From: Escherichia phage L27
DNA length: 64,000 nt
Sequence record: LC473039.1
Direction: 5' to 3' (one strand)
Below the pieces are notes generated by a model. The model had not been told where the DNA came from, searched no databases, and saw nothing but the letters and a program-made list of their open reading frames with translations. Positions 14,498-61,737 of the stretch are shown here, piece by piece; position 1 is the stretch's first letter; each line of letters starts with the position of its first letter. A program made the position numbers and the translations under genes.

Positions 14498-14526
14498 TTG
14501 ACAATGTGTTTGATACCCTTTAATAT
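14498..14526 (+). promoter_or_regulatory. strong sigma70-like promoter (TTGACA-17-TAATAT) upstream of tRNA cluster
   Basis: consensus -35, 17-nt spacer, near-consensus -10. Confidence 0.7.
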
Positions 14527-14644
14527 GTTCTACATAGAAACGAAACGAGAGCTTTTCTAAGATACTGAAAAATATTTTAAAAAAGTTCTTGACAATCACT
14601 AAAAAATAATGTTAAAGTGGTTACATAGAGTTTGAAAAGTTTAT

Positions 14645-14721
14645 CTCTGTTTAGCTCAGCTTGGTAGAGCGTTCCGTTTGGGGCGGTAAGGCCGGAGGTT
14701 CAAGTCCTCCAACAGAGACCA
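14645..14721 (+). tRNA. tRNA-Pro (anticodon TGG)
   Basis: hand-folded cloverleaf; 7-bp acceptor ctctgtt/aacagag, T-loop ttcaagt, CCA encoded. Confidence 0.7.
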
Positions 14722-14728
14722 AATTAAT

Positions 14729-14806
14729 GTTCCAGTAGACAAAATGGTATAGTCACCACTCTTTCAAAGTGGATATTTGAGGGTTCAAATCCCTTCTGGA
14801 ACGCCA
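14729..14806 (+). tRNA. tRNA-Glu (anticodon TTC)
   Basis: acceptor gttccag/ctggaac, anticodon loop ctttcaa, CCA encoded. Confidence 0.7.
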
Positions 14807-14810
14807 GTTT

Positions 14811-14889
14811 TGACAGAAGACCAATTACAGCAAACTTAATCTTATTCATCTGAAGGTAAATCGGACAAAGAAGAGACTTGGTCTGGTCA
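14811..14889 (+). ncRNA. structured RNA-like element A (Y-RNA-like family)
   Basis: terminal helix tgac/gtca + AGAA/UG internal loop + GACCAA/TTGGTC helix; conserved 'tacagcaa' box. Confidence 0.5.
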
Positions 14890-14898
14890 TTAAGAATT

Positions 14899-14975
14899 GC
14901 GGGTATAGAGAAAGGGCGTCTCACATGTCTCATTAGCATGGTATCGGCAGGTTCGACTCCTGCACCCGCCTCCAA
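14899..14975 (+). tRNA. tRNA-Met-like (anticodon CAT), 1:72 unpaired
   Basis: anticodon loop ctcatta, T-arm gcagg/ttcgact/cctgc, CCA encoded; first acceptor pair mismatched. Confidence 0.6.
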
Positions 14976-14978
14976 ATT

Positions 14979-15049
14979 TACAGAAGACCGTTTACAGCAA
15001 AATTGAATGAAATTTTTAGCGGAAAAATTGAAAGATACGGTCTGGTAAT
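14979..15049 (+). ncRNA. structured RNA-like element B (Y-RNA-like family)
   Basis: terminal helix ttac/gtaa + AGAA/UG loop + GACCGT/ACGGTC helix. Confidence 0.5.
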
Positions 15050-15058
15050 ACTAAACAT

Positions 15059-15132
15059 GGTTAGGAAGCACATAAGGTATGTGCGGTCGCCTGTTAAGCG
15101 AATGGCACAGGGTTCGAATCCCTGACTAACCG
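15059..15132 (+). tRNA. tRNA-Asn (anticodon GTT)
   Basis: T-arm caggg/ttcgaat/ccctg, anticodon loop ctgttaa; CCA not encoded. Confidence 0.65.
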
Positions 15133-15144
15133 CAAAATTTAAAT

Positions 15145-15232
15145 GTGTCGTTATCCCGTAGATGGTAGCGGTGGGGACTGTAAATCCCTTGTCATTGAGA
15201 CTCGGTAGGTTCGACTCCTACACGGCACACCA
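15145..15232 (+). tRNA. tRNA-Tyr (anticodon GTA), long variable arm
   Basis: anticodon stem-loop gggga/ctgtaaa/tccct, T-arm gtagg/ttcgact/cctac, acceptor gtgtcgt/acggcac. Confidence 0.65.
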
Positions 15233-15254
15233 ACACTTAGCGAGATACTTAGTT

Positions 15255-15683
15255 ATGAGAGATGAAGTATACAAATCACAACTTGGTATGAGTTTGGGAA
15301 CTGCACAAAACAGACTAGTAAAAGATTTGCTATTCGATTTTATATGTAAGACAAATCAAAATAGATGTTTTCAGTGCGGAAAAGAAATGACTAGGGATGA
15401 TTTCTCTATCGAGCATAAGATTCCGTGGAGACATAGTGAGAATGCAAAAGAGCTTTTCTTTTCACTAGATAATATTTCTTATAGTCATCTTAAATGTAAC
15501 ATGAAAGCAGCAAGACCAGCACAGATAAGTGAAAGAAAACATAAAACAATTAAACACGGAACTGCGTATAGTTATTTTAAAGGCTGTAGATGCGATGAGT
15601 GTAGGTTGGCTAAGAATGCTGAGAGTAGAAGAAACTATAGTCCAGAAAGACGTAGGAAGAAGTATCTAAGAAATGGCACATGA
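15255..15683 (+). CDS. HNH homing endonuclease (142 aa)
   Basis: CFQCG...SIEHKIPW...N...H..CN HNH motif; basic C-terminus; embedded in tRNA cluster. Confidence 0.75.
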   Translation: MRDEVYKSQLGMSLGTAQNRLVKDLLFDFICKTNQNRCFQCGKEMTRDDFSIEHKIPWRHSENAKELFFSLDNISYSHLKCNMKAARPAQISERKHKTIKHGTAYSYFKGCRCDECRLAKNAESRRNYSPERRRKKYLRNGT

Positions 15684-15687
15684 ATTT

Positions 15688-15763
15688 GGGGTATTAGTTT
15701 AGACGGGTAAAATACGGGATTGTCTCTCCTGAGCCGCGAGTTCGATTCTCGCATACCTCGCCA
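15688..15763 (+). tRNA. tRNA-Asp (anticodon GTC)
   Basis: acceptor ggggtat/atacctc, anticodon loop ttgtctc, CCA encoded. Confidence 0.75.
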
Positions 15764-15821
15764 ATTTTGAGAGGGCTATTTAGCCCCTCCCTTAAAGGGT
15801 TCTTACGAGTATCTTTTAAAG

Positions 15822-15903
15822 GAGCAGAAGACCAAATACAGCAAGAACGTATGAAAATTTCAAGCCAATTTAATTTTGAAAAATTTAAAACTTGGTCTGG
15901 CTC
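15822..15903 (+). ncRNA. structured RNA-like element C (Y-RNA-like family)
   Basis: terminal helix gagc/gctc + AGAA/UG loop + GACCAA/TTGGTC helix. Confidence 0.5.
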
Positions 15904-15910
15904 AACAAAT

Positions 15911-16047
15911 TTACAGAAGACCGTTTACAGCAAAACTTAAACAATCTATTTCTCGGTAAAGAAAAGGCGAAGGTTCGATTCCTTCACTCGGCAGATGTCG
16001 AGTTGGTGTAATGGTAGCACTTAAGATGATAAACAACGGTCTGGTAA
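15911..16047 (+). ncRNA. structured RNA-like element D with circularly permuted tRNA-like module (candidate YrlA-type Y RNA)
   Basis: same terminal helices as A-C; interior has T-arm gaagg/ttcgatt/ccttc, then acceptor-3' actcggc, 4-nt linker, acceptor-5' gtcgagt (7-bp complement) and D-arm gtgt/aatggta/gcac. Confidence 0.5.
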
Positions 16048-16189
16048 TTATCTTTGTAGATAAGTTATTAAGCTTACCTGTGAGTATGCGACCACAAAGG
16101 GTGAAAGGGTAAATTCTAGATTTAAACCCAACAAGGCACATCGCTACAGACCTTAAGCAAGTCTGGGTAGCTTATCTACAAAGATAATT
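16046..16189 (+). ncRNA. structured element F bounded by a 19-bp perfect inverted repeat
   Basis: aattatctttgtagataag (16046-16064) is the exact reverse complement of 16171-16189; about 106-nt interior with internal hairpins. Confidence 0.45.
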
Positions 16190-16193
16190 TAAT

Positions 16194-16269
16194 GGAAGTG
16201 TAGCAGAATGGTGATGCGGTAGACTTTTAATCTGACAGGCGATGGGTTCGAATCCCTCCACTTCTACCA
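16194..16269 (+). tRNA. tRNA-Lys (anticodon TTT), atypical T-stem
   Basis: acceptor ggaagtg/cacttct, anticodon loop cttttaa; T-stem has A.C and U.U mismatches. Confidence 0.55.
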
Positions 16270-16273
16270 AAAT

Positions 16274-16350
16274 GGTTCAGTCGCAGATAAGGTAATGCAA
16301 GGGTCTCATAAGCCCTATGAATGTGGGTTCGATTCCCATCTGAACCTCCA
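16274..16350 (+). tRNA. tRNA-Met or Ile2 (anticodon CAT)
   Basis: acceptor ggttcag/ctgaacc perfect, anticodon loop ctcataa, CCA encoded. Confidence 0.7.
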
Positions 16351-16367
16351 ATTTATAGGTGATACTT

Positions 16368-16853
16368 ATGATTTGTGCCAACAAAGATTGCAGAAATGAA
16401 GCCGTTAAAGGTGGAAAATTTTGCTCACGCTCTTGTTCTGCAAAAGTGAACAACAAGAAACACCCAAAGAGAAGTCAGGAAGGCTCTTGCCATTCATGCG
16501 GAAAGGTAACGCCAAAAGCGAGAAAATACTGTGACGAATGTATTGCAGGTGGAGTCATGAAAAAACATAAGACCCATCATGAAAAAAGCAAAGCCAAATC
16601 ACTGCACGTTAAAAAGTCTCGTGACAGACTGAAGAAGGCTTTAGTTGATTACAAGGGTGGTTGTTGTTCAATTTGTGGTTACAATAGGTGCATAAAGGCT
16701 CTAGAGTTTCACCACTTAGACCCTAAGACAAAAGACTTCACAGTAAGTAAAAAACACTACTCACTGGCTACAATGCAGTCTGAAGTTGATAAGTGTGTCT
16801 TGCTTTGTGCAAATTGCCACAGAGAAGTACACGAAGGGGTAACAATGCTGTGA
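16368..16853 (+). CDS. HNH homing endonuclease (161 aa), Cys-rich N-terminus
   Basis: CSICGYN...LEFHHLDP...CANCHREVH HNH motif; stop codon lies inside the first bases of tRNA-Ile. Confidence 0.75.
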   Translation: MICANKDCRNEAVKGGKFCSRSCSAKVNNKKHPKRSQEGSCHSCGKVTPKARKYCDECIAGGVMKKHKTHHEKSKAKSLHVKKSRDRLKKALVDYKGGCCSICGYNRCIKALEFHHLDPKTKDFTVSKKHYSLATMQSEVDKCVLLCANCHREVHEGVTML

Positions 16854-16922
16854 AAGCACATATGGATGTGCATTCGGCTGATAACCGAAAGGCAGAAGGT
16901 TCAAATCCTTCTCACAGTACCA
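16847..16922 (+). tRNA. tRNA-Ile (anticodon GAT)
   Basis: clean cloverleaf: D-stem gcac/gtgc, anticodon stem ttcgg/ccgaa, T-stem gaagg/ccttc, CCA encoded. Confidence 0.8.
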
Positions 16923-16937
16923 ATTTCAATAAAGTTG

Positions 16938-16966
16938 TTGACATTGAGATGTGACTACTTTATAGT
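16938..16966 (+). promoter_or_regulatory. sigma70-like promoter (TTGACA-17-TATAGT) inside tRNA cluster
   Basis: consensus -35 and good -10 with 17-nt spacer. Confidence 0.65.
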
Positions 16967-17170
16967 AACCTTAGTTTTCGTTGCGTAGCGTCTATTTTGC
17001 AAATTTAAAATAAATGCAAACGACAATGTTTTTCTGGCAGTAGCTTGATAGGCTAAACACCAGTGAGGTCTTCCAATCCCTCATCAAAGAATTTGGCGTA
17101 CTCGCCCACGGTATGATTAATAAGGTGGGCATCTTTAAGGGCTTTCTAAGAGAGTCTTTAAAGATAATTA

Positions 17171-17252
17171 CGGGGCGTATCTCAGCGGTCTTCTAAACCG
17201 CCGTTAACCGAGTAAGTGGAGTATGCGGGTTCGAGTCCTGCCGCCTCGACCA
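17171..17252 (+). tRNA. aberrant tRNA-like gene (possible anticodon TCT), D-arm missing or unrecognisable
   Basis: good T-arm and 7-bp acceptor (cggggcg/cgcctcg) with CCA; stem-loop gcggt/cttctaa/accgc; only about 7 nt where the D-arm should be. Confidence 0.4.
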
Positions 17253-17395
17253 ATTTAGTTAGCAGATTACTTAGACGACCTAAGCGGGTCTTCCTGTAGG
17301 GAGGTGGTCTGTATCTCATGTTTTCCAGAACATGTAAATAATCTGAGAAGGGGCTTTACAGTGTTGAGATAATACGGTAAGCTTCGAATTATAGT

Positions 17396-17478
17396 ATGGG
17401 ACGATGTTAAGACTCTAAGGCATGAGCAACGGCTTCCAACACCGTTTCAAAGGGGTTCAACTCCTCCGTCCCATGCCA
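17396..17478 (+). tRNA. tRNA-Trp-like (anticodon CCA) with about 8-nt insertion before D-stem
   Basis: perfect 7-bp acceptor atgggac/gtcccat, anticodon loop ttccaac, T-loop ttcaact, CCA encoded; expanded D region. Confidence 0.45.
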
Positions 17479-17491
17479 AAGTCTTATTAGG

Positions 17492-17581
17492 GGTAGGTAG
17501 CGGCTAATGGTAGCCAAACAGTCTTGAAAACTGTTGCCACTGTAGAGATACGGTGAGGGTTCGACTCCTTTACTTACCGCC
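17492..17581 (+). tRNA. tRNA-Ser (anticodon TGA), long variable arm
   Basis: anticodon stem acagt/actgt perfect, loop cttgaaa, 20-nt variable arm. Confidence 0.75.
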
Positions 17582-17735
17582 TAATAAGATTTTACACCGT
17601 CCATGCTTGCTCGCATTTTCGGTTTATCCCTCGTGTATTGTCGTACACTGATAAAGCACCTAGTAGGTGTCACGGAGAAGAGATAATATCAAGCTCTCCA
17701 AAGGTTCTAGTCACCGGATTAAACAAGACTATGCA

Positions 17736-17758
17736 AAGACCAAATTAGGTCTTTTTAG
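17736..17758 (+). terminator. terminator-like hairpin with T-run inside tRNA cluster
   Basis: aagacc-aaatta-ggtctt followed by TTTTT. Confidence 0.45.
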
Positions 17759-17835
17759 AGGGCTTCTAAGGTTATTACAGCTTGTTGTGGAACCTTGTTG
17801 CTTAGGTTCTTAGAAGTTCTCTAAAAAGATTTAAT

Positions 17836-17913
17836 GGGAGATTGACGGTAATTGGTAAACCTATCTCGCTTAGAACGAGATGTTTGAGGGTTCGAATCCC
17901 TTGTCTCCTACCA
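17836..17913 (+). tRNA. tRNA with Leu-type anticodon TAG but short variable arm
   Basis: anticodon stem tctcg/cgaga, loop cttagaa, T-arm gaggg/ttcgaat/ccctt, CCA encoded. Confidence 0.55.
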
Positions 17914-17920
17914 AATTAAT

Positions 17921-17996
17921 GCAGGTGTAGCAAAATGGTTATGCGGCTGACTCTTAATCAGTAAGACGATGGGTTCAATTCCCTCCACCTGTACCA
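17921..17996 (+). tRNA. tRNA-Lys (anticodon CTT), atypical T-stem
   Basis: anticodon stem gctga/tcagt, loop ctcttaa; same unusual T-stem as the TTT Lys tRNA. Confidence 0.55.
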
Positions 17997-18002
17997 GACA
18001 TT

Positions 18003-18078
18003 GGGGATGTAGTTTACATGGTTAAAACATAAGTTTTGCAAACTTAAGTACAGGGTTCAATTCCCTGCTTCTCCACCA
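18003..18078 (+). tRNA. tRNA-Ala (anticodon TGC)
   Basis: G3.U70 wobble pair present; D-stem gttt/aaac, anticodon stem taagt/actta perfect. Confidence 0.8.
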
Positions 18079-18084
18079 ATTAGT

Positions 18085-18159
18085 GCATCCATAGTTTAAA
18101 CGGGAAAATTGCAGTCTTCCAAACTGAGGTTGAGGGTTCGATTCCCTCTGGATGCTCCA
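18085..18159 (+). tRNA. tRNA-Gly (anticodon TCC)
   Basis: perfect acceptor gcatcca/tggatgc, T-arm gaggg/ttcgatt/ccctc. Confidence 0.75.
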
Positions 18160-18165
18160 AATAAA

Positions 18166-18242
18166 GCTGCTTTCGTATAATTGGCTATTACACATCCCTT
18201 GTAAGGATGGAAATGCAGGTTCGAGTCCTGTGAGCAGCACCA
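18166..18242 (+). tRNA. tRNA-Thr (anticodon TGT)
   Basis: anticodon stem catcc/ggatg perfect, loop cttgtaa, CCA encoded. Confidence 0.75.
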
Positions 18243-18245
18243 ATT

Positions 18246-18333
18246 CAGAGGTCAAGTGAAAGACCGCTGGTGTCAACTGAAGACCGTAACAAATTCCACG
18301 GAGTTGAGTTAGCGGCACAACTTCAGACCTCTT
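18246..18333 (+). ncRNA. structured RNA-like element E (truncated family member with nested helices)
   Basis: outer helix agaggtc/gacctct; inner mini-element 18275-18307 has caac/gttg + ccgt/acgg helices and 'gaagaccgt' box. Confidence 0.4.
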
Positions 18334-18337
18334 TCAC

Positions 18338-18412
18338 ACTCGCTTAGTTTATATGGTAAAACATCACCCTTACAAGATGAAGAAAAAGGTTCAAGTCCTT
18401 TAGTGAGTACCA
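18338..18412 (+). tRNA. tRNA-Val (anticodon TAC)
   Basis: D-stem gttt/aaac, anticodon loop cttacaa, T-arm aaagg/ttcaagt/ccttt. Confidence 0.7.
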
Positions 18413-18413
18413 T

Positions 18414-18491
18414 GTTCCAGTATCCCAATTGGCAGAGGATGCAAGCTCAAACCTTGTATTAGTGACGGTTCGAATCCGTCTTGGAACACCA
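18414..18491 (+). tRNA. tRNA with Leu-type anticodon CAA but short variable arm
   Basis: anticodon stem gcaag/cttgt, loop ctcaaac, T-arm gacgg/ttcgaat/ccgtc perfect. Confidence 0.55.
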
Positions 18492-18510
18492 ATTTTAAGA
18501 GGCTATTTAG

Positions 18511-19068
18511 ATGAGATATTTGAAGTATGCTTCATGGATTTTCCTAGCTTTACTAGAGCCATTTGCAGCAACCCTAGCAGTCATCTTAGCACCTTTCGTA
18601 GTCCCATTCTACAGTGAGAAGAAAGGGCATCTACCTTTTGGATTCAGATGGATGGAGACCTATGACAACCCGATTGATGGTGATGAAGGCCACGTTAAAA
18701 GATGGGCTAAGATTAGAAAGATTGGTAAGCTGGGTGTCTACATGCAGAGAGTTGGGTGGCTCTGGAGAAACAAAGCTTATAACTTCTCTTACCATGTATT
18801 AGGAAGAGATGTAAAAGATGTTACTAAGTGGAAAGGTAATATCAACGTAAGTTCTAACCCTGAAGATAATCAAACAGGTTATCTCCTAATGTGGAACAGA
18901 AATGCTTGGGGTTTATTTGCTTTTATCCCATCAATTAAAGTCTTTGGTAAACAGTTTTACTGGAGAATTTATATTGGATGGAAACTAAAAAGTGTTGTCC
19001 CAGAAGAAAGAGCATTCTCAAGGGAAAGAGTTATGTTGGCATTCTTTATTCATCCACTGAGAAAGTAA
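18511..19068 (+). CDS. hypothetical membrane protein (185 aa) inside tRNA cluster
   Basis: N-terminal hydrophobic segment (WIFLALLEPFAATLAVILAPFVVPF); ORF between tRNA genes. Confidence 0.55.
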   Translation: MRYLKYASWIFLALLEPFAATLAVILAPFVVPFYSEKKGHLPFGFRWMETYDNPIDGDEGHVKRWAKIRKIGKLGVYMQRVGWLWRNKAYNFSYHVLGRDVKDVTKWKGNINVSSNPEDNQTGYLLMWNRNAWGLFAFIPSIKVFGKQFYWRIYIGWKLKSVVPEERAFSRERVMLAFFIHPLRK

Positions 19069-19076
19069 AGATTTAA

Positions 19077-19152
19077 AGGGGATTAGTTTACAAGGTTAAA
19101 ACCTCGGTCTTTGAAATCGAAGAAGTTGGTTCAATTCCAACATCCCCCGCCA
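19077..19152 (+). tRNA. tRNA-Gln (anticodon TTG), A1.C72 mismatch
   Basis: anticodon loop ctttgaa, T-arm gttgg/ttcaatt/ccaac perfect. Confidence 0.65.
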
Positions 19153-19154
19153 AT

Positions 19155-19233
19155 GCTCCATTACTCCAATTGGCAGAGAGGCCAGACTTAAAATCTGTGT
19201 TATGTATCGGTTCGAATCCGATATGGAGTACCA
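19155..19233 (+). tRNA. tRNA with Leu-type anticodon TAA but short variable arm
   Basis: anticodon loop cttaaaa, T-arm atcgg/ttcgaat/ccgat perfect. Confidence 0.55.
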
Positions 19234-19238
19234 AATTT

Positions 19239-19314
19239 AGCGGTATAGCATAACTGGCAATGCAGCAGTCTCTGAAGCTGTCCTATTAAGGTTCAAATCC
19301 TTATGCCGCTGCCA
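19239..19314 (+). tRNA. tRNA-Gln (anticodon CTG)
   Basis: anticodon stem gcagt/gctgt (two G.U), loop ctctgaa, T-arm taagg/ttcaaat/cctta. Confidence 0.7.
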
Positions 19315-19345
19315 CTTCTAAGGGTTCTTACGAGAGTCCTTAAAT

Positions 19346-19421
19346 GTGGCCTTATCATAAATGGTAATGACCCATGCTGTGAACATGGTCTATACGGGTT
19401 CAAATCCCGTAGGTCACCCCA
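19346..19421 (+). tRNA. tRNA-His (anticodon GTG)
   Basis: D-stem tcat/atga, anticodon stem ccatg/catgg perfect, T-arm acggg/ttcaaat/cccgt perfect. Confidence 0.8.
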
Positions 19422-19426
19422 ATTTA

Positions 19427-19502
19427 TAGTCCAAGTAGCTTATATGGTAAAGCGCGTGTCTGAAAAACATGAGAAGAGGGTTCAAATCCCACTGGACTAC
19501 CA
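19427..19502 (+). tRNA. tRNA-Phe (anticodon GAA), boundaries approximate
   Basis: D-stem gctt/aagc, anticodon loop ctgaaaa; acceptor tagtcca/tggacta. Confidence 0.6.
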
Positions 19503-19518
19503 ATTTCAAAGGTGCTTA

Positions 19519-20253
19519 ATGAAAGAGATGACAGAACAAGGTAAGGAGATTTTTAATCTCTTAAAAACCGGTAAAGGGTTTTCTAACCCACTTATTACTG
19601 GTGCAGCAGTTCTCGGTGGAACCGTAGCTGCCTCTACATCACTTGTAAACTCTATTAGTTCTGTAACAGACCCTACAATGAAGGATAAACTTGTTGCTGC
19701 TGGACTTACAACAGTCCTTCTAAACAGCTTTACAACAAGCCTTACAAGCACTACAGCAACTACTAAGACCCTAACAGACTACGGTCAAAAGTCTATTGAT
19801 GAGTTTTCATCACGTATGCAGGTAGCAAAGGGATACTCCAATGTTATGGGTGCAGCAGGAGAACAAGTTGGTTGTACACCATTCAGTGGTATTATGGGTG
19901 TTGCTACAGAGTATGGTCAAAAAGCTATTGACACGATTAACAGTACACTGGATAGTGTTAATGATGTGTTAAGTGACTTACAAGATGCTATTGATAAGGG
20001 TCTTGATACTGTTTCTGATTTAGCTAACCAAGCTGTAAGTAAAATTAATGAAGGTATTTCAAAGATTACAGCTTATGCAGATGAAGTTGTGCAGATGATT
20101 GAAGAAGAAGCTGCACTTATTGCAGAGTACCTTAAAACGAATATCAATGGGTTCTTAGCAGGTATCTTACCAGACTGGTTTGATGATGCTTGCAAAACTG
20201 GTGTAATTGACACTATTGCAACACCAGAAATGAAGAACGCATTACAGAAATAA
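19519..20253 (+). CDS. hypothetical Ser/Thr-rich protein (about 245 aa) inside tRNA cluster
   Basis: ORF from ATG at 19519; the upstream part of the track ORF overlaps tRNA genes and is discounted. Confidence 0.5.
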   Translation: MKEMTEQGKEIFNLLKTGKGFSNPLITGAAVLGGTVAASTSLVNSISSVTDPTMKDKLVAAGLTTVLLNSFTTSLTSTTATTKTLTDYGQKSIDEFSSRMQVAKGYSNVMGAAGEQVGCTPFSGIMGVATEYGQKAIDTINSTLDSVNDVLSDLQDAIDKGLDTVSDLANQAVSKINEGISKITAYADEVVQMIEEEAALIAEYLKTNINGFLAGILPDWFDDACKTGVIDTIATPEMKNALQK

Positions 20254-20254
20254 T

Positions 20255-20347
20255 GGAAGATTAACCCTAAAAGGTAAGGGAGCAGTTTGCTAAACTGCCA
20301 GTAGCTGAGAAATCGGTGTACCAGTTCAAGTCTGGTATCTTCCTCCA
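20255..20347 (+). tRNA. tRNA-Ser (anticodon GCT), long variable arm
   Basis: perfect acceptor ggaagat/atcttcc, anticodon stem gcagt/actgc, 21-nt variable arm. Confidence 0.8.
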
Positions 20348-20351
20348 ATTT

Positions 20352-20427
20352 GAATCCGTGACAGAAATGGCTATGTGCCTGTCTGCAAAACAGGTTTATA
20401 AGGGTTCGAGTCCCTTCGGATTCTCCA
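20352..20427 (+). tRNA. tRNA-Cys (anticodon GCA)
   Basis: perfect acceptor gaatccg/cggattc, anticodon stem cctgt/acagg. Confidence 0.8.
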
Positions 20428-50835: not shown

Positions 50836-51369
50836 TCAACTTAGTTTTGCAAACTCTCCGTGGAGTTTAATAGCAGCTTCACAGTAAGCTTTATGGGCTT
50901 CTTCAGGTGTGTCATGGTGACCTAAAAACATCTTCTTACCTTTATAACTTATCTGTGCGACCCACTTACCAGACTTCTTCTTAAGACTTACACCCTTGTA
51001 CCCAGATTTATTGGTGACTGGTTTACCTTTATTCCAAGCACTTTGAAAATCATCTGCTTCCCTTAAGTTTACAATCCTGTTGTCAAGTGAGTCTCCGTTG
51101 ATATGGTCAATGATACCTTTTGGCATCTTGCCATACACGTAAAGCCATGCGAGTCTGTGTGCTTTATGTGCTTTCTTGTCAAAATAGATACTAATCTGTT
51201 TATGACCACTTGAATCAGTCTGGATATTACCTGCCACCTTTCCTGCATAATTACTGTTAAAAACACTAACAGCTCTTGATTTACCTTCTCTACGAAGCCA
51301 AGTAAAGACCCCTGTTTCGGGGTCATAGTGCAGCAGCTCCTTTAAACGTTTTTGTAAAATTAAATCCAT
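50836..51369 (-). CDS. HNH homing endonuclease with AP2-like DNA-binding domain
   Basis: 'IDHINGDSLDNRIVNL' HNH_3-type motif and 'YKGVS...KWVAQISYKGKKMFLGHH' AP2-like region; immediately downstream of intron-containing polymerase gene. Confidence 0.75.
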   Translation of the reverse strand: MDLILQKRLKELLHYDPETGVFTWLRREGKSRAVSVFNSNYAGKVAGNIQTDSSGHKQISIYFDKKAHKAHRLAWLYVYGKMPKGIIDHINGDSLDNRIVNLREADDFQSAWNKGKPVTNKSGYKGVSLKKKSGKWVAQISYKGKKMFLGHHDTPEEAHKAYCEAAIKLHGEFAKLS

Positions 51370-51372
51370 TAA

Positions 51373-51929
51373 TCAATGTACCTCATACCAGCTCTTACCA
51401 ACCTTTGCTGTACCAGTTACAAGTGTTTCTTTCCTCAAACCTAAGTTTTTTGAAGCTTGTCCATACATCCAGTCAGCAATTGCTTTCATATCCTGTGTCA
51501 TACCCTCTGGACATTCCCAACTATTTTCATCGTGATATGCCAGAAGTAACCTTGCTCCGATAGCTGGTTTTCGAGCATTCAGTTTTGTCAGGCCATCTTC
51601 ACAGGCTTTTCTTGCTGCTAGGTTGATGGCCTCATTCTGAATCTGTGCTTCCGAACTCATCAGGAGGTAGTTCAGTAGTTTATGTGGAGATTTGCACCAT
51701 ATCCATGCTCCAGCGACCCTGATATAACCACCTTTAGCAATTGAAGAATTCTTCCCAAAAACCTCTTCCAGAGCCTTTTTAGACGCCTTAAAATCGGCTT
51801 CTAAGCTATCAAGTAACTTCTTAATCTTTGGAAGACGCATATAGTAAGTTTGTTTAGTCAATGCACCTTCTTCCGTAGATGATGCTTTGATAGTTTTTGC
51901 AAACTTCTCGTCACCTGCACCGAACAATA
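51373..51929 (-). CDS. DNA polymerase (family A, T7-like), exon 2
   Basis: contains motif B continuation 'FGAGDEK' and motif C 'YHDENSWECPEG'; joins in frame to exon 1 after removal of intron. Confidence 0.8.
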
Positions 51930-60209: not shown

Positions 60210-61250
60210 ATGGAGAAGTATACGCTAACAAAACTTCCCGATTCAGTTACACATGTCTTTATTGACTCTGACAGTATTGCCTATAAAGGTGCTTGTGTAG
60301 TTGAGAAAGCAAAGTATAAATATGTCAATAAACTCACAGCAGAAGAATCTGATTCGTTTGATAATGCGAAAGATGCTGCAAGATGGTTAGCAGACCAGAG
60401 AATCCTTGTGGAAGAGCTTGGCCTGACATTTGATGAAGATGAATGGGAAAGACAGACTTGGAAAGAAGCTAAGAGTGAAAAAGAAGCTATCATGGCTACT
60501 CAACAGGTGCTTCAAGAATGGCTTAAGGTTGTTGGTAAAGAAAGAACTTGGGTAGGTTACTTAACAGAGAAGGGTGTACATAAACATAAAGACATTAAAG
60601 GTCTTGAGCACCAATATCAAGGTAACCGTAAAGGTGCTGTCACACCAACACACTTGGTCGCTTGTCGTGAATATCTTCTGTCAAGACCAGAGTTCAAACT
60701 AATTCTTGATGGATTTGAAGCTGACTCTATCGTTATTGCTAAAGCTGAAAAGATGGGAAAAAAGGCTGCCTTAATGAGTATTGATAAAGACCTTCGCCAA
60801 GCTGAAGGGACTTACTGCATTGATATGACCTATGAAAAGTCGCCTTTGATTTTCATTGCTGATAACAACGTTGGTGAAATTTGGGATTGTCCAATAAAAT
60901 CGACACCAAAAGCTAAGAAGACAGTTGGGGTAGGTTTTAAATTTCTTTGTTACCAAGCTGTGGCTGGTGATAATGCGGATAATTATTTCGGTTTAAAGGG
61001 TGTTGGTAAGGTTACTATAATGAAAGCCCTTGAAGGTAAAAATACTTATAAAGAGTGCCTTGATGCTATCTATGAACTTTATGCTAAGAAAGAGTCATAC
61101 ACTTATGTATCATGGGATGGTCAAACAATTACCAGAACACCTTTAGAGTTGATGCAGCAACACTTTTTCTTAGCTTATCAGGAAAGAAACAAGAAAGACG
61201 ATTTCACTTTTAAGAAATATAATTGGGAGCCTTGTATGAATGAAGATTAA
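60210..61250 (+). CDS. 5'-3' exonuclease / flap endonuclease
   Basis: H3TH-like motif 'AVAGDNADNYFGLKGVGKVT'. Confidence 0.75.
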   Translation: MEKYTLTKLPDSVTHVFIDSDSIAYKGACVVEKAKYKYVNKLTAEESDSFDNAKDAARWLADQRILVEELGLTFDEDEWERQTWKEAKSEKEAIMATQQVLQEWLKVVGKERTWVGYLTEKGVHKHKDIKGLEHQYQGNRKGAVTPTHLVACREYLLSRPEFKLILDGFEADSIVIAKAEKMGKKAALMSIDKDLRQAEGTYCIDMTYEKSPLIFIADNNVGEIWDCPIKSTPKAKKTVGVGFKFLCYQAVAGDNADNYFGLKGVGKVTIMKALEGKNTYKECLDAIYELYAKKESYTYVSWDGQTITRTPLELMQQHFFLAYQERNKKDDFTFKKYNWEPCMNED

Positions 61251-61737
61251 AGGATTTGGTAATTGCCCCATCTATGGTCATTGGGTATCTTTATGTGGGG
61301 AAGTTGACCCCACTAAACATTTTGGCTTTGTCTATTTAGTACACTGTAAGAAGACTGGACAATATTATATCGGAAGGAAACAGTTTAATAGCGTGACCAA
61401 AAGAAAAGTTGCTGGCAAGACTCGGAAGAAGGTAGTCACTAAGGAAAGTGATTGGAGGACTTATGAGACTTCTTCTGAGTATATTAAAAAAGATATTGAA
61501 AGCTTTGGAAAGGAGTCTTTTGACTTTTACATTATCCAAACCTACTACACAAAAGGTGGCCTAGTCTATGGTGAAGCAAACCTTCAACATAAATTCGATG
61601 TAATGACAAAAAGGATTGACTCGAAGCTCAGACTCTTCTACAATGCCAATATTGCAGCAATTAAGTTTATTACTAAAGAAACTTATGAAGATGCTGAAAA
61701 AAGAATCCATAAGGTAATGAAAGCAAATTGTGCTTAA
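61240..61737 (+). CDS. putative GIY-YIG endonuclease
   Basis: 'FVYLVHCKKTGQYYIGRK' fits GIY-x10-YIG. Confidence 0.55.
   Translation: MKIKGFGNCPIYGHWVSLCGEVDPTKHFGFVYLVHCKKTGQYYIGRKQFNSVTKRKVAGKTRKKVVTKESDWRTYETSSEYIKKDIESFGKESFDFYIIQTYYTKGGLVYGEANLQHKFDVMTKRIDSKLRLFYNANIAAIKFITKETYEDAEKRIHKVMKANCA

Follow-up and report, generated by a model that had tools for sequence, protein, structure and literature searches.

SegB of phage T4 is a free-standing GIY-YIG homing endonuclease encoded among the tRNA genes of that phage. In phage T2 its targets are tRNA genes, which it cuts at a T-arm motif; it carries the neighbouring tRNA genes along, and transcript processing near the segB stop codon was proposed in 2008 as a brake on its expression (PMC2330249). 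A 2026 paper reports that SegB homologs co-localize with tRNAs and can amplify tRNA genes against tRNA-cleaving defence (PMC13096335). Nucleases of HNH type have also been described among phage tRNA genes. In the part of PMC2330249 that cites them, F-TflI, F-TflII and F-TflIV are HNH site-specific endonucleases from the tRNA region of phage T5, and down-regulation by precursor processing is suggested for the T5 HNH genes too. The relevant section of a survey of viral tRNA clusters describes HNH open reading frames (ORFs) in mycobacteriophage tRNA arrays, which are thought to diversify the tRNA repertoire (PMC6409571). For phage Felix O1, six HNH copies were counted in its genome paper, the counting section of which does not mention a relation to tRNAs (PMC3185647). 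Here we analyse two HNH genes (HNH#1 and HNH#2) in the tRNA array of Escherichia phage L27, using a 64,000-nucleotide (nt) stretch of sequence record LC473039.1 (hereafter the window, to which positions refer). We put the probability at roughly 0.75 that two unrelated free-standing HNH homing-endonuclease genes independently colonized very short spacers in the tRNA array of this Felix O1-like phage.

Two insertions in the tRNA array

A megablast search with positions 14600–17600 matched 276 phage records, nearly all of them Felix O1-like myoviruses of the genus Felixounavirus, to which the window also belongs. The array consists of 24 tRNA genes on the + strand at 14645–20427 (ARAGORN, with which Rfam agrees). 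Its tRNA–tRNA spacers are mostly 1–11 nt long, and ORFs or conserved non-coding stretches occupy a few large gaps. The placement of two HNH genes inside this cluster, as proposed in the initial annotation, is borne out by the tRNA calls of ARAGORN and Rfam and by Pfam and PHROG matches of the gene products. HNH#1 sits between tRNA-Tyr and tRNA-Asp, starting 22 nt past the former and stopping 4 nt ahead of the latter. HNH#2 has tRNA-Met on its left and tRNA-Ile on its right, and its ATG follows an AGGTGA motif by 5 nt and tRNA-Met by 17–18 nt (Table 1).

We then counted the presence and absence of both genes among the ∼276 related GenBank phage records. HNH#1 is present in 22 and HNH#2 in 11 of them (8% and 4%), and both genes occur together in one GenBank record only, approximately as expected from independent assortment. 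For example, Felix O1 contains HNH#2 only, radambza HNH#1 only, REP9 neither and S.Kent 1-2-1 both. Because HNH-less sites have spacers of 5–6 and 1–2 nt, respectively, the two genes are insertions of 455 and 496 nt into these spacers. The HNH#1 insert (leader, ORF and a 4-nt tail) stands in place of the spacer ATAAA or AATAAA of HNH-less genomes, where the empty site reads ...CACACCA-ATAAA-tRNA-Asp(A). The empty HNH#2 site reads ...CCTCCA followed by -A, -AA or -AT and then by tRNA-Ile. Furthermore, exactly the same HNH#1 insertion point recurs with HNH#1 variants that are 74–76% identical in DNA. Since both ORFs are sporadic at fixed positions and carry nuclease motifs, their reading as homing-type nucleases is well supported. 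This pattern is the reverse of universally conserved ORFs without nuclease motifs, the outcome against which the initial annotation had set its homing-type reading.

Table 1. Positions of the two HNH genes and of other features in the window
Feature	Position	Strand	Remarks
tRNA-Tyr(GTA)	15145–15232	+	Left flank of the HNH#1 cassette (ARAGORN)
HNH#1 leader, 22 nt	15233–15254	+	Between tRNA-Tyr and the HNH#1 ATG
HNH#1 ORF, 142 amino acids (aa)	15255–15683	+	ATG to TGA; putative free-standing homing-type endonuclease gene
tRNA-Asp(GTC) allele B	15688–15763	+	Right of HNH#1; anticodon loop UUGUCUC (U32, U37)
tRNA-Met(CAT)	16274–16350	+	Left flank of the HNH#2 insert (ARAGORN)
HNH#2 insert, 496 nt	16351–16846	+	17-nt leader with AGGTGA, plus ORF body; replaces the 1–2-nt Met–Ile spacer
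HNH#2 ORF, 161 aa	16368–16853	+	Cys-rich N-terminal region; predicted C-terminal HNH domain ending in CANCHREVHEGVTML and the stop
tRNA-Ile(GAT) allele beta	16847–16922	+	ARAGORN and Rfam (59.9 bits); positions 5–7 are the HNH#2 stop
Two sigma-70-like promoter matches	14498–14618 (at 14498 and 14589)	+	Upstream of the array; consensus only
Promoter-like site	16938–16966	+	TTGACA-17-TATAGT, 11/12; 16 nt past tRNA-Ile; consensus only
HNH_3 + AP2 endonuclease gene	50836–51369	−	Sporadic among relatives
SegE-type GIY-YIG gene	61240–61737	+	Nearly fixed in the genus
Ro60-like protein gene, 471 aa	13064–14479	+	Directly upstream of the array; Pfam DUF2828 and DUF7788; PHROG 'RNA-binding protein'
69-nt element in the Met–Asn spacer	14981–15049	+	Shares its closing-helix motif, CAGAAGACCGUUUACAGC...ACGGUCUGGUAAU, with the YrlA-like mimic; short hairpin inside
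YrlA-like tRNA mimic	15914–16048	+	Core of the Asp–Lys gap; predicted fold

The HNH#1 cassette and its tRNA-Asp

Homology with the empty genomes ends 1 nt past the CCA of tRNA-Tyr and resumes immediately past that of tRNA-Asp. The tRNA-Asp allele beside HNH#1 (Asp-B) differs from that of the empty sites (Asp-A) at many positions spread over the whole tRNA. Asp-B is xenologous to Asp-A, a foreign replacement of the resident tRNA-Asp. At an identity of at least 96%, Asp-B is found in exactly the 22 HNH#1 records, always adjoining HNH#1, and in none of the others. The two alleles are too different to recombine, so their perfect linkage with presence and absence of HNH#1 shows inheritance as a block. 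The inherited unit is leader–HNH#1–tRNA-Asp(B), which replaces ATAAA–tRNA-Asp(A). We also searched the flanks for polymorphisms linked to the presence of an HNH gene (a co-conversion tract), and no position there is fixed between HNH-containing and HNH-less genomes.

Among outside relatives, Asp-B comes closest to a tRNA-Asp of Seunavirus SalP219 (80% identical), which has a full-length HNH#1 homolog (46% identity in aa) 26 nt upstream. This suggests that HNH#1 and a tRNA-Asp have moved as a unit. Where Asp-A and the SalP219 tRNA-Asp have the canonical anticodon loop CUGUCAC, that of Asp-B is unusual in its U32 and in the pyrimidine at 37. Such a loop could change how the tRNA decodes, how it is modified or how readily anticodon nucleases cut it (compare PMC10264068).

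The HNH#2 stop codon inside tRNA-Ile

The 3′ end of HNH#2 reads ACA AT|G CTG TGA, where the bar marks the 5′ end of tRNA-Ile. The last 7 bases of the gene (16847–16853) are therefore positions 1–7 of the tRNA, which give the end of the third-last codon, the last sense codon and the stop. The TGA itself (16851–16853) coincides with positions 5–7 of the acceptor stem (GCTGTGA/TCACAGT). The overlap that the initial annotation had pointed out, in which messenger and tRNA share sequence, can thus be seen directly. In all 11 GenBank records that contain HNH#2, including an 83%-identical Mooglevirus copy, the insert adjoins tRNA-Ile base for base.

The tRNA-Ile(GAT) of the genus comes in three alleles (alpha, beta and gamma) that differ strongly from one another. 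HNH#2 is found on Ile-beta only (11 of 46 beta records), and on none of the ∼230 others, whether alpha or gamma. In the 35 records with Ile-beta and no HNH#2, the 5′ end of the tRNA is identical (GCTGTGA). The stop codon of HNH#2 is therefore ordinary tRNA sequence and was not carried in by the insert. At position 8, Ile-beta carries an A in place of the almost universal U, and it also has a G1–U72 pair.

Nuclease identity and selection

HNH#1 consists of a helical N-terminal region, an HNH motif (CxxC..EH..N..H..CN) and a C-terminal HGT..Y..GCRC..C motif. The HNH motif is intact (C38, C41...E53-H54...N73...H78..C-N82), and most of its residues are invariant in the family alignment. The protein matches the Pfam HNH family (PF01844) with 21.7 bits (cut-off 21.4) and the PHROG HNH family phrog_23251 with an E-value of 1e-79. 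HNH#2 matches phrog_2255 ('HNH endonuclease', 2e-36), and its motif CxxC..HH..N..CxxCH is visible as CCSIC...EFHH...CANCHREVH. Sequence searches of the PDB returned nothing for HNH#1 and weak matches only (E > 0.02) for HNH#2. Both proteins are thus predicted members of the HNH/His-Me finger endonucleases. With regard to membership in the SegB family, the GIY-YIG domain is not present in either protein, and both match HNH profiles only.

Five alleles of each gene were compared; lengths are invariant within each gene, and frameshifts are absent. Pairwise ratios of nonsynonymous to synonymous divergence (dN/dS) range from 0.08 to 0.25, with dS reaching ∼0.6 for HNH#2 and >1.6 for HNH#1 (up to ∼1.7 overall). 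Both ORFs are thus intact and under purifying selection, and these ratios rule out pseudogenes. Two further possibilities were rejected: (i) an intron or intein, because the inserts consist of a leader and an ORF only and the flanking tRNAs are uninterrupted; and (ii) a packaging HNH associated with a terminase, because of the location in the tRNA array and the sporadic presence.

Some existing gene starts differ from ours. A longer HNH#1 ORF from the ATG at 15162, inside tRNA-Tyr, has no support in the family alignment. The GenBank start of the radambza HNH#1 looks too long, with its ATG inside tRNA-Tyr and a product of 173 aa (L002, 1062–1583). That of FelixO1 ORF97, which is HNH#2 with the same 7-nt overlap (L001, 1868–2362), also looks too long, as it is a GTG inside the ribosome-binding site.

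Both families in other phages

We then examined whether relatives elsewhere also adjoin tRNA genes, using a profile of HNH#1 relatives, 80 loci from IMG/VR and, as a control, the HNH_3–AP2 family of the same window. A same-strand tRNA gene, of many isotypes, lies within 100 nt of the match in 59 of the 80 HNH#1-family loci. Clustering of these loci leaves the proportion at 48 of 65 (90% identity) or 42 of 54 (70%). None of the 80 control loci has such a neighbour (Fisher P ∼6e-26 between the two families, for loci that are not phylogenetically independent). In the HNH#2 family, tRNAs are present in 33 of 54 loci and lie within 100 nt in 15. In GenBank, Pectobacterium phage Arno162 has two homologs in tRNA arrays, 4 and 8 nt ahead of tRNA-Thr and tRNA-Gly, and the homolog of Justusliebigvirus UAB_1 is likewise inside a tRNA array.

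Stop codons inside tRNA genes also recur. In the HNH#2 family they were found at seven further loci (about five distinct contexts), where the ORF runs into tRNA-Thr, tRNA-Cys, tRNA-Asn or tRNA-Ile with overlaps of 7, 10, 14 or 15 nt. In the HNH#1 family, the stop lies inside the next same-strand tRNA in 7 of 52 cases, and the tRNA is at most 30 nt away or overlapping in 36. Both genes belong to HNH lineages with members beside tRNA genes in many unrelated phages, and for at least one HNH lineage the bond to tRNA genes is as close as that of the GIY-YIG nuclease SegB.

Expression and possible mechanism

A consensus scan for sigma-70-like promoters gave no match directly upstream of HNH#1 or HNH#2, and no terminator-like site was found on the + strand between 14521 and 19576. 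Both genes are therefore probably translated from a polycistronic tRNA precursor. Two promoter matches lie ahead of the array and another one lies shortly past tRNA-Ile (Table 1). The latter suggests that the array is transcribed in more than one unit, the first of which HNH#2 and tRNA-Ile may close.

In a mixed infection, the nuclease would cut an HNH-less locus in or near tRNA genes, and double-strand-break repair would then copy the cassette across. This would be intronless homing, the process demonstrated for SegB in T4. The presence of Asp-B in place of Asp-A and the splitting of the Met|Ile junction by HNH#2 are both compatible with homing. On the precursor of these apparently promoterless genes, the RNase P cut at position +1 of tRNA-Ile would strip the HNH#2 stop, leaving ...GUAACAAU-3′. 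The processed message would then be a non-stop mRNA, and released full-length protein would come from unprocessed precursor only. On any one molecule, translation up to the stop would preclude tRNA-Ile from folding or being processed, and vice versa. Removal of the stop would hold a potentially toxic nuclease at a low level. We infer this removal by tRNA 5′ processing from the geometry of the overlap and from the established biology of RNase P and transfer-messenger RNA (tmRNA).

Alternative explanations

Several observations weigh against homing by both genes or against a role of the overlap in expression. HNH#2 stays below the Pfam HNH cut-off (15.1 bits), and Ile-beta records that lack HNH#2 outnumber those that have it by three to one. 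The linkage of HNH#1 with Asp-B follows trivially from the divergence of the alleles and alone is no proof that Asp-A was the target. The promoter scan covered sigma-70-type consensus sequences only, and phage-specific promoters could exist. In the T4 RefSeq record, segB ends 5 nt ahead of tRNA-Arg, which is abutment and not overlap. In the frame of HNH#2, the commoner Ile-alpha would give a TAG at tRNA positions 8–10, and the overlap could be a neutral effect of tight packing.

This last explanation is about as likely as a regulatory role. Specifically, the overlap may have no regulatory role and may be a by-product of a gene squeezed against a tRNA, to which we give slightly less than an even chance. 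Array spacers mostly measure 1–7 nt, and any ORF that enters a tRNA soon meets a stop, as the TAG of Ile-alpha illustrates. In the HNH#1 family, close spacing is frequent, yet only seven stops lie within the tRNA. Moreover, the overlaps end at varied tRNA positions (5–7, 8–10, 12–14 and 13–15), so no single geometry is kept. However, the 7-nt overlap has remained unchanged over a dS of ∼0.6 between the Felixounavirus and Mooglevirus copies, and stop-in-tRNA overlaps recur in independent lineages. Whatever the origin of the overlap, RNase P would still strip the stop, and an effect on expression would be hard to avoid.

A different possibility, which we regard as rather doubtful, is that the nucleases are kept for the benefit of the phage, through exchange or amplification of tRNA or anti-defence genes or through exclusion of competitors. 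SegB amplifies tRNA-Tyr against the Septu defence, and its homologs co-localize with tRNAs (PMC13096335). The array is a mosaic, with two alleles of tRNA-Asp, three of tRNA-Ile and two forms of the Arg(UCU) site, and the Asp-B anticodon loop is unusual. Purifying selection on both genes fits such a benefit, but is also expected for an actively homing selfish gene. The low frequency of both genes speaks against a general benefit, and no amplification is seen in the window.

An extended form of the homing reading, in which both lineages are specialized on phage tRNA arrays as a convergent counterpart of SegB, the stop inside the tRNA is a selected throttle and the HNH#1 cassette spreads a U32/U37 tRNA-Asp that possibly escapes host anticodon nucleases, is unlikely to hold in full. 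It is quite improbable that the cassettes are moron-like imports, brought in from tRNA-rich phages by illegitimate recombination and without homing, with the HNH proteins acting elsewhere or not at all. The nearest outside relatives of Asp-B and HNH#1 are indeed in tRNA arrays of Vequintavirinae and Stephanstirmvirinae. However, the precise insertion point shared by divergent HNH#1 variants and the family-wide tRNA adjacency across unrelated phages, absent from the control, are a pattern typical of site-directed mobility. Lastly, decaying or spurious ORFs with an overlap that is an annotation artefact, for which one might cite the Pfam score of HNH#2 and the disagreement of GenBank start codons, are effectively refuted by the low dN/dS, the invariant lengths without frameshifts, the strong PHROG matches, the intact motif and tRNA-Ile ends on which two programs and identical HNH-less alleles agree.

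Other nuclease genes and variation of the array

With two further genes, the initial annotation had counted four putative homing-type nucleases in the window. All four nuclease genes are real, and the HNH_3–AP2 gene is also sporadic: at least 80% of its region is covered in 46 of 235 records, so it is optional. By contrast, the region of the GIY-YIG gene is covered in 201 of 236 records (∼85%). Being nearly fixed, it does not at present behave as a mobile gene, and the count of four holds for nucleases and not for mobile elements.

The HNH_3–AP2 gene adjoins a 184-aa ORF (51373–51927, − strand) that matches only the C-terminal part of a family A DNA polymerase (Pfam positions 218–381 of 381), and the polymerase gene may be split at this insertion. 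The SegE-type GIY-YIG gene is often annotated as 'NAD synthetase', and in some relatives an extra HNH gene (∼490 bp) is inserted beside it.

The mosaic nature of the array among relatives, seen for the Asp and Ile alleles and the Arg(UCU) site, extends to other positions. At 17171–17249 (+ strand), many relatives have a canonical tRNA-Arg(TCT). The window has in its place another tRNA-like sequence, whose anticodon is TCT and whose variable arm is long. It is not among the ARAGORN calls, its Rfam tRNA score is 31.7 bits, and REP9 is annotated there as 'tRNA-OTHER'. This is another allelic replacement within the array. At 18491–19077, the window is without the tRNA-Arg(ACG) that many relatives have 5–6 nt (two relatives: 114 nt) after tRNA-Leu(CAA). 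Given the non-canonical Arg(TCT) site and the absent tRNA-Arg(ACG), the window may be without any standard tRNA-Arg.

Further array spacers also differ by insertions among relatives. A third ORF, FelixO1 ORF100 (L001, 2850–3242), which RefSeq names 'HNH endonuclease', lies between tRNA-Ile and tRNA-Ser. The Ser–Leu gap is ∼720 nt in the contigs of some relatives (L015 and L017) against ∼255 nt, and the Arg(ACG)–Gln gap is 822 nt in some (L013, L016 and L017) against 585 nt.

A Ro60-like protein and YrlA-like RNAs

The gene directly upstream of the array gave a finding that is separate from the HNH genes and may be more interesting. An AlphaFold (AF2) model of its product has a confidence score (pLDDT) of 89, and the 12 best PDB matches of this model are all of Ro60/Rsr type (TROVE), over approximately the whole length, with E ∼1e-8 and TM scores of 0.44–0.68. 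They include the Ro60 protein of Thermus phage phiLo. The product is therefore predicted to have a Ro60/TROVE + vWA fold. A 2024 preprint describes the Bas63 ortholog, gp130, as Ro60-like, as countering the 'ppl' defence and as 'possibly' partnering with Y RNAs among the tRNAs, of which it identified none (10.1101/2024.10.10.617714).

The 430-nt gap between tRNA-Asp and tRNA-Lys (15764–16193), which lies between the two HNH genes, is non-coding, and over the matched stretch it is at least 95% identical in ∼207 of 251 records. Its core is predicted to fold into a closing helix, a small (V) hairpin, a T arm (GAAGG-UUCGAUU-CCUUC), a loop-capped acceptor-like stem of 7 bp and a D arm. This order of parts, V-T-AS-D, is the one by which the tRNA-mimicking Y RNA YrlA is defined (PMC4201824). 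Three fully compensatory pairs are found in the acceptor-like stem among three lineages, i.e. (i) Felixounavirus; (ii) Suspvirus SUSP1, Mooglevirus Sf16 and Henu11; and (iii) Moogle and Mordin. Pairing in this stem is 96.9%, against ∼50% when the partners are slid. A covariance model of this element gave full-length matches in 18 of 75 loci that encode distant (39–47%) Ro60-like relatives; the matches are on the same strand as the Ro60-like gene, and 10 of 24 lie within 200 nt of it.

Rfam gave no match above threshold for this element and sub-threshold matches only. A permuted tmRNA was rejected, since there is neither a G3–U70 pair nor an ARAGORN tmRNA call, and the Rfam matches are below threshold. 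A remnant of two tandem tRNAs is ruled out by the compensatory changes, the conservation and the covariance matches beside Ro60-like genes in unrelated phages. The 69-nt element in the Met–Asn spacer, conserved in Felixounavirus and Mordin, may be a second, YrlB-like small RNA that shares a protein-binding helix. The YrlA-like RNAs are thus candidates for the Y RNA predicted for these phages. We found no identification of these tRNA-mimicking RNAs in the literature, which here does not include the supplementary list of YrlA phages of Chen et al. 2014.

Comparison with known systems

SegB of T4 and the HNH genes of T5 are earlier examples of the kind of element described here. HNH#1 and HNH#2 share with SegB that (i) a free-standing nuclease gene sits among tRNA genes, has no promoter close to it and is (segB) or probably is (HNH#1 and HNH#2) transcribed as part of the tRNA precursor; (ii) the gene is optional among relatives; and (iii) homologs are associated with tRNAs in many phages. 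SegB drags flanking tRNA genes along in homing, and HNH#1 is inherited with Asp-B. For segB, the proposed limit on expression was a cut in the precursor where the ORF ends, made as the following tRNA matures. The HNH#2 stop inside a tRNA is a tighter version of the segB arrangement. By contrast, SegB is a GIY-YIG enzyme with a known target (the tRNA T-arm motif), whereas HNH#1 and HNH#2 are of HNH/His-Me finger type and have no sequence relation to it. By analogy, both genes would work like SegB, and being HNH and not GIY-YIG they are not members of the SegB family.

The T5 F-Tfl enzymes, in the part of the SegB paper that mentions them, resemble HNH#1 and HNH#2 as HNH-type ORFs among phage tRNA genes. 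A tblastn search with HNH#1 (E ≤ 1e-8, 87 records) gave no T5-like phage in the organism tallies or among the matches listed, which suggests that the F-Tfl enzymes probably belong to a different HNH lineage. The mycobacteriophage HNH genes belong to actinophage lineages and are likened here by description, the relevant section of the survey making no mention of a stop-in-tRNA overlap (PMC6409571).

Outside phages, the arrangement recalls the tRNA punctuation of mitochondria. There, mRNA ends are set by excision of the flanking tRNAs, and coding and tRNA bases can overlap. The likeness is an analogy only: incomplete stops are completed by polyadenylation in mitochondria, whereas in bacteria loss of the stop leads to a non-stop mRNA for tmRNA. 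The stop inside tRNA-Ile is a simple, testable case of tRNA processing coupled to the fate of an mRNA in bacteria.

To the known systems our results add the exact anatomy of both insertions, population evidence of mobility, a linked replacement tRNA-Asp, the family-wide proximity of the HNH#1 lineage to tRNAs, set against a control family, and the recurrence of stop-in-tRNA overlaps. The locus is a well-sampled natural case, with filled and empty sites and with three Ile and two Asp alleles in isolated phages, and a good one for how tRNA genes are shuffled from phage to phage by selfish nucleases. The tRNAs of phages are nowadays regarded as a means of countering host defences that cleave tRNAs, so replacement of tRNA alleles driven by nucleases could have a bearing on phage host range.

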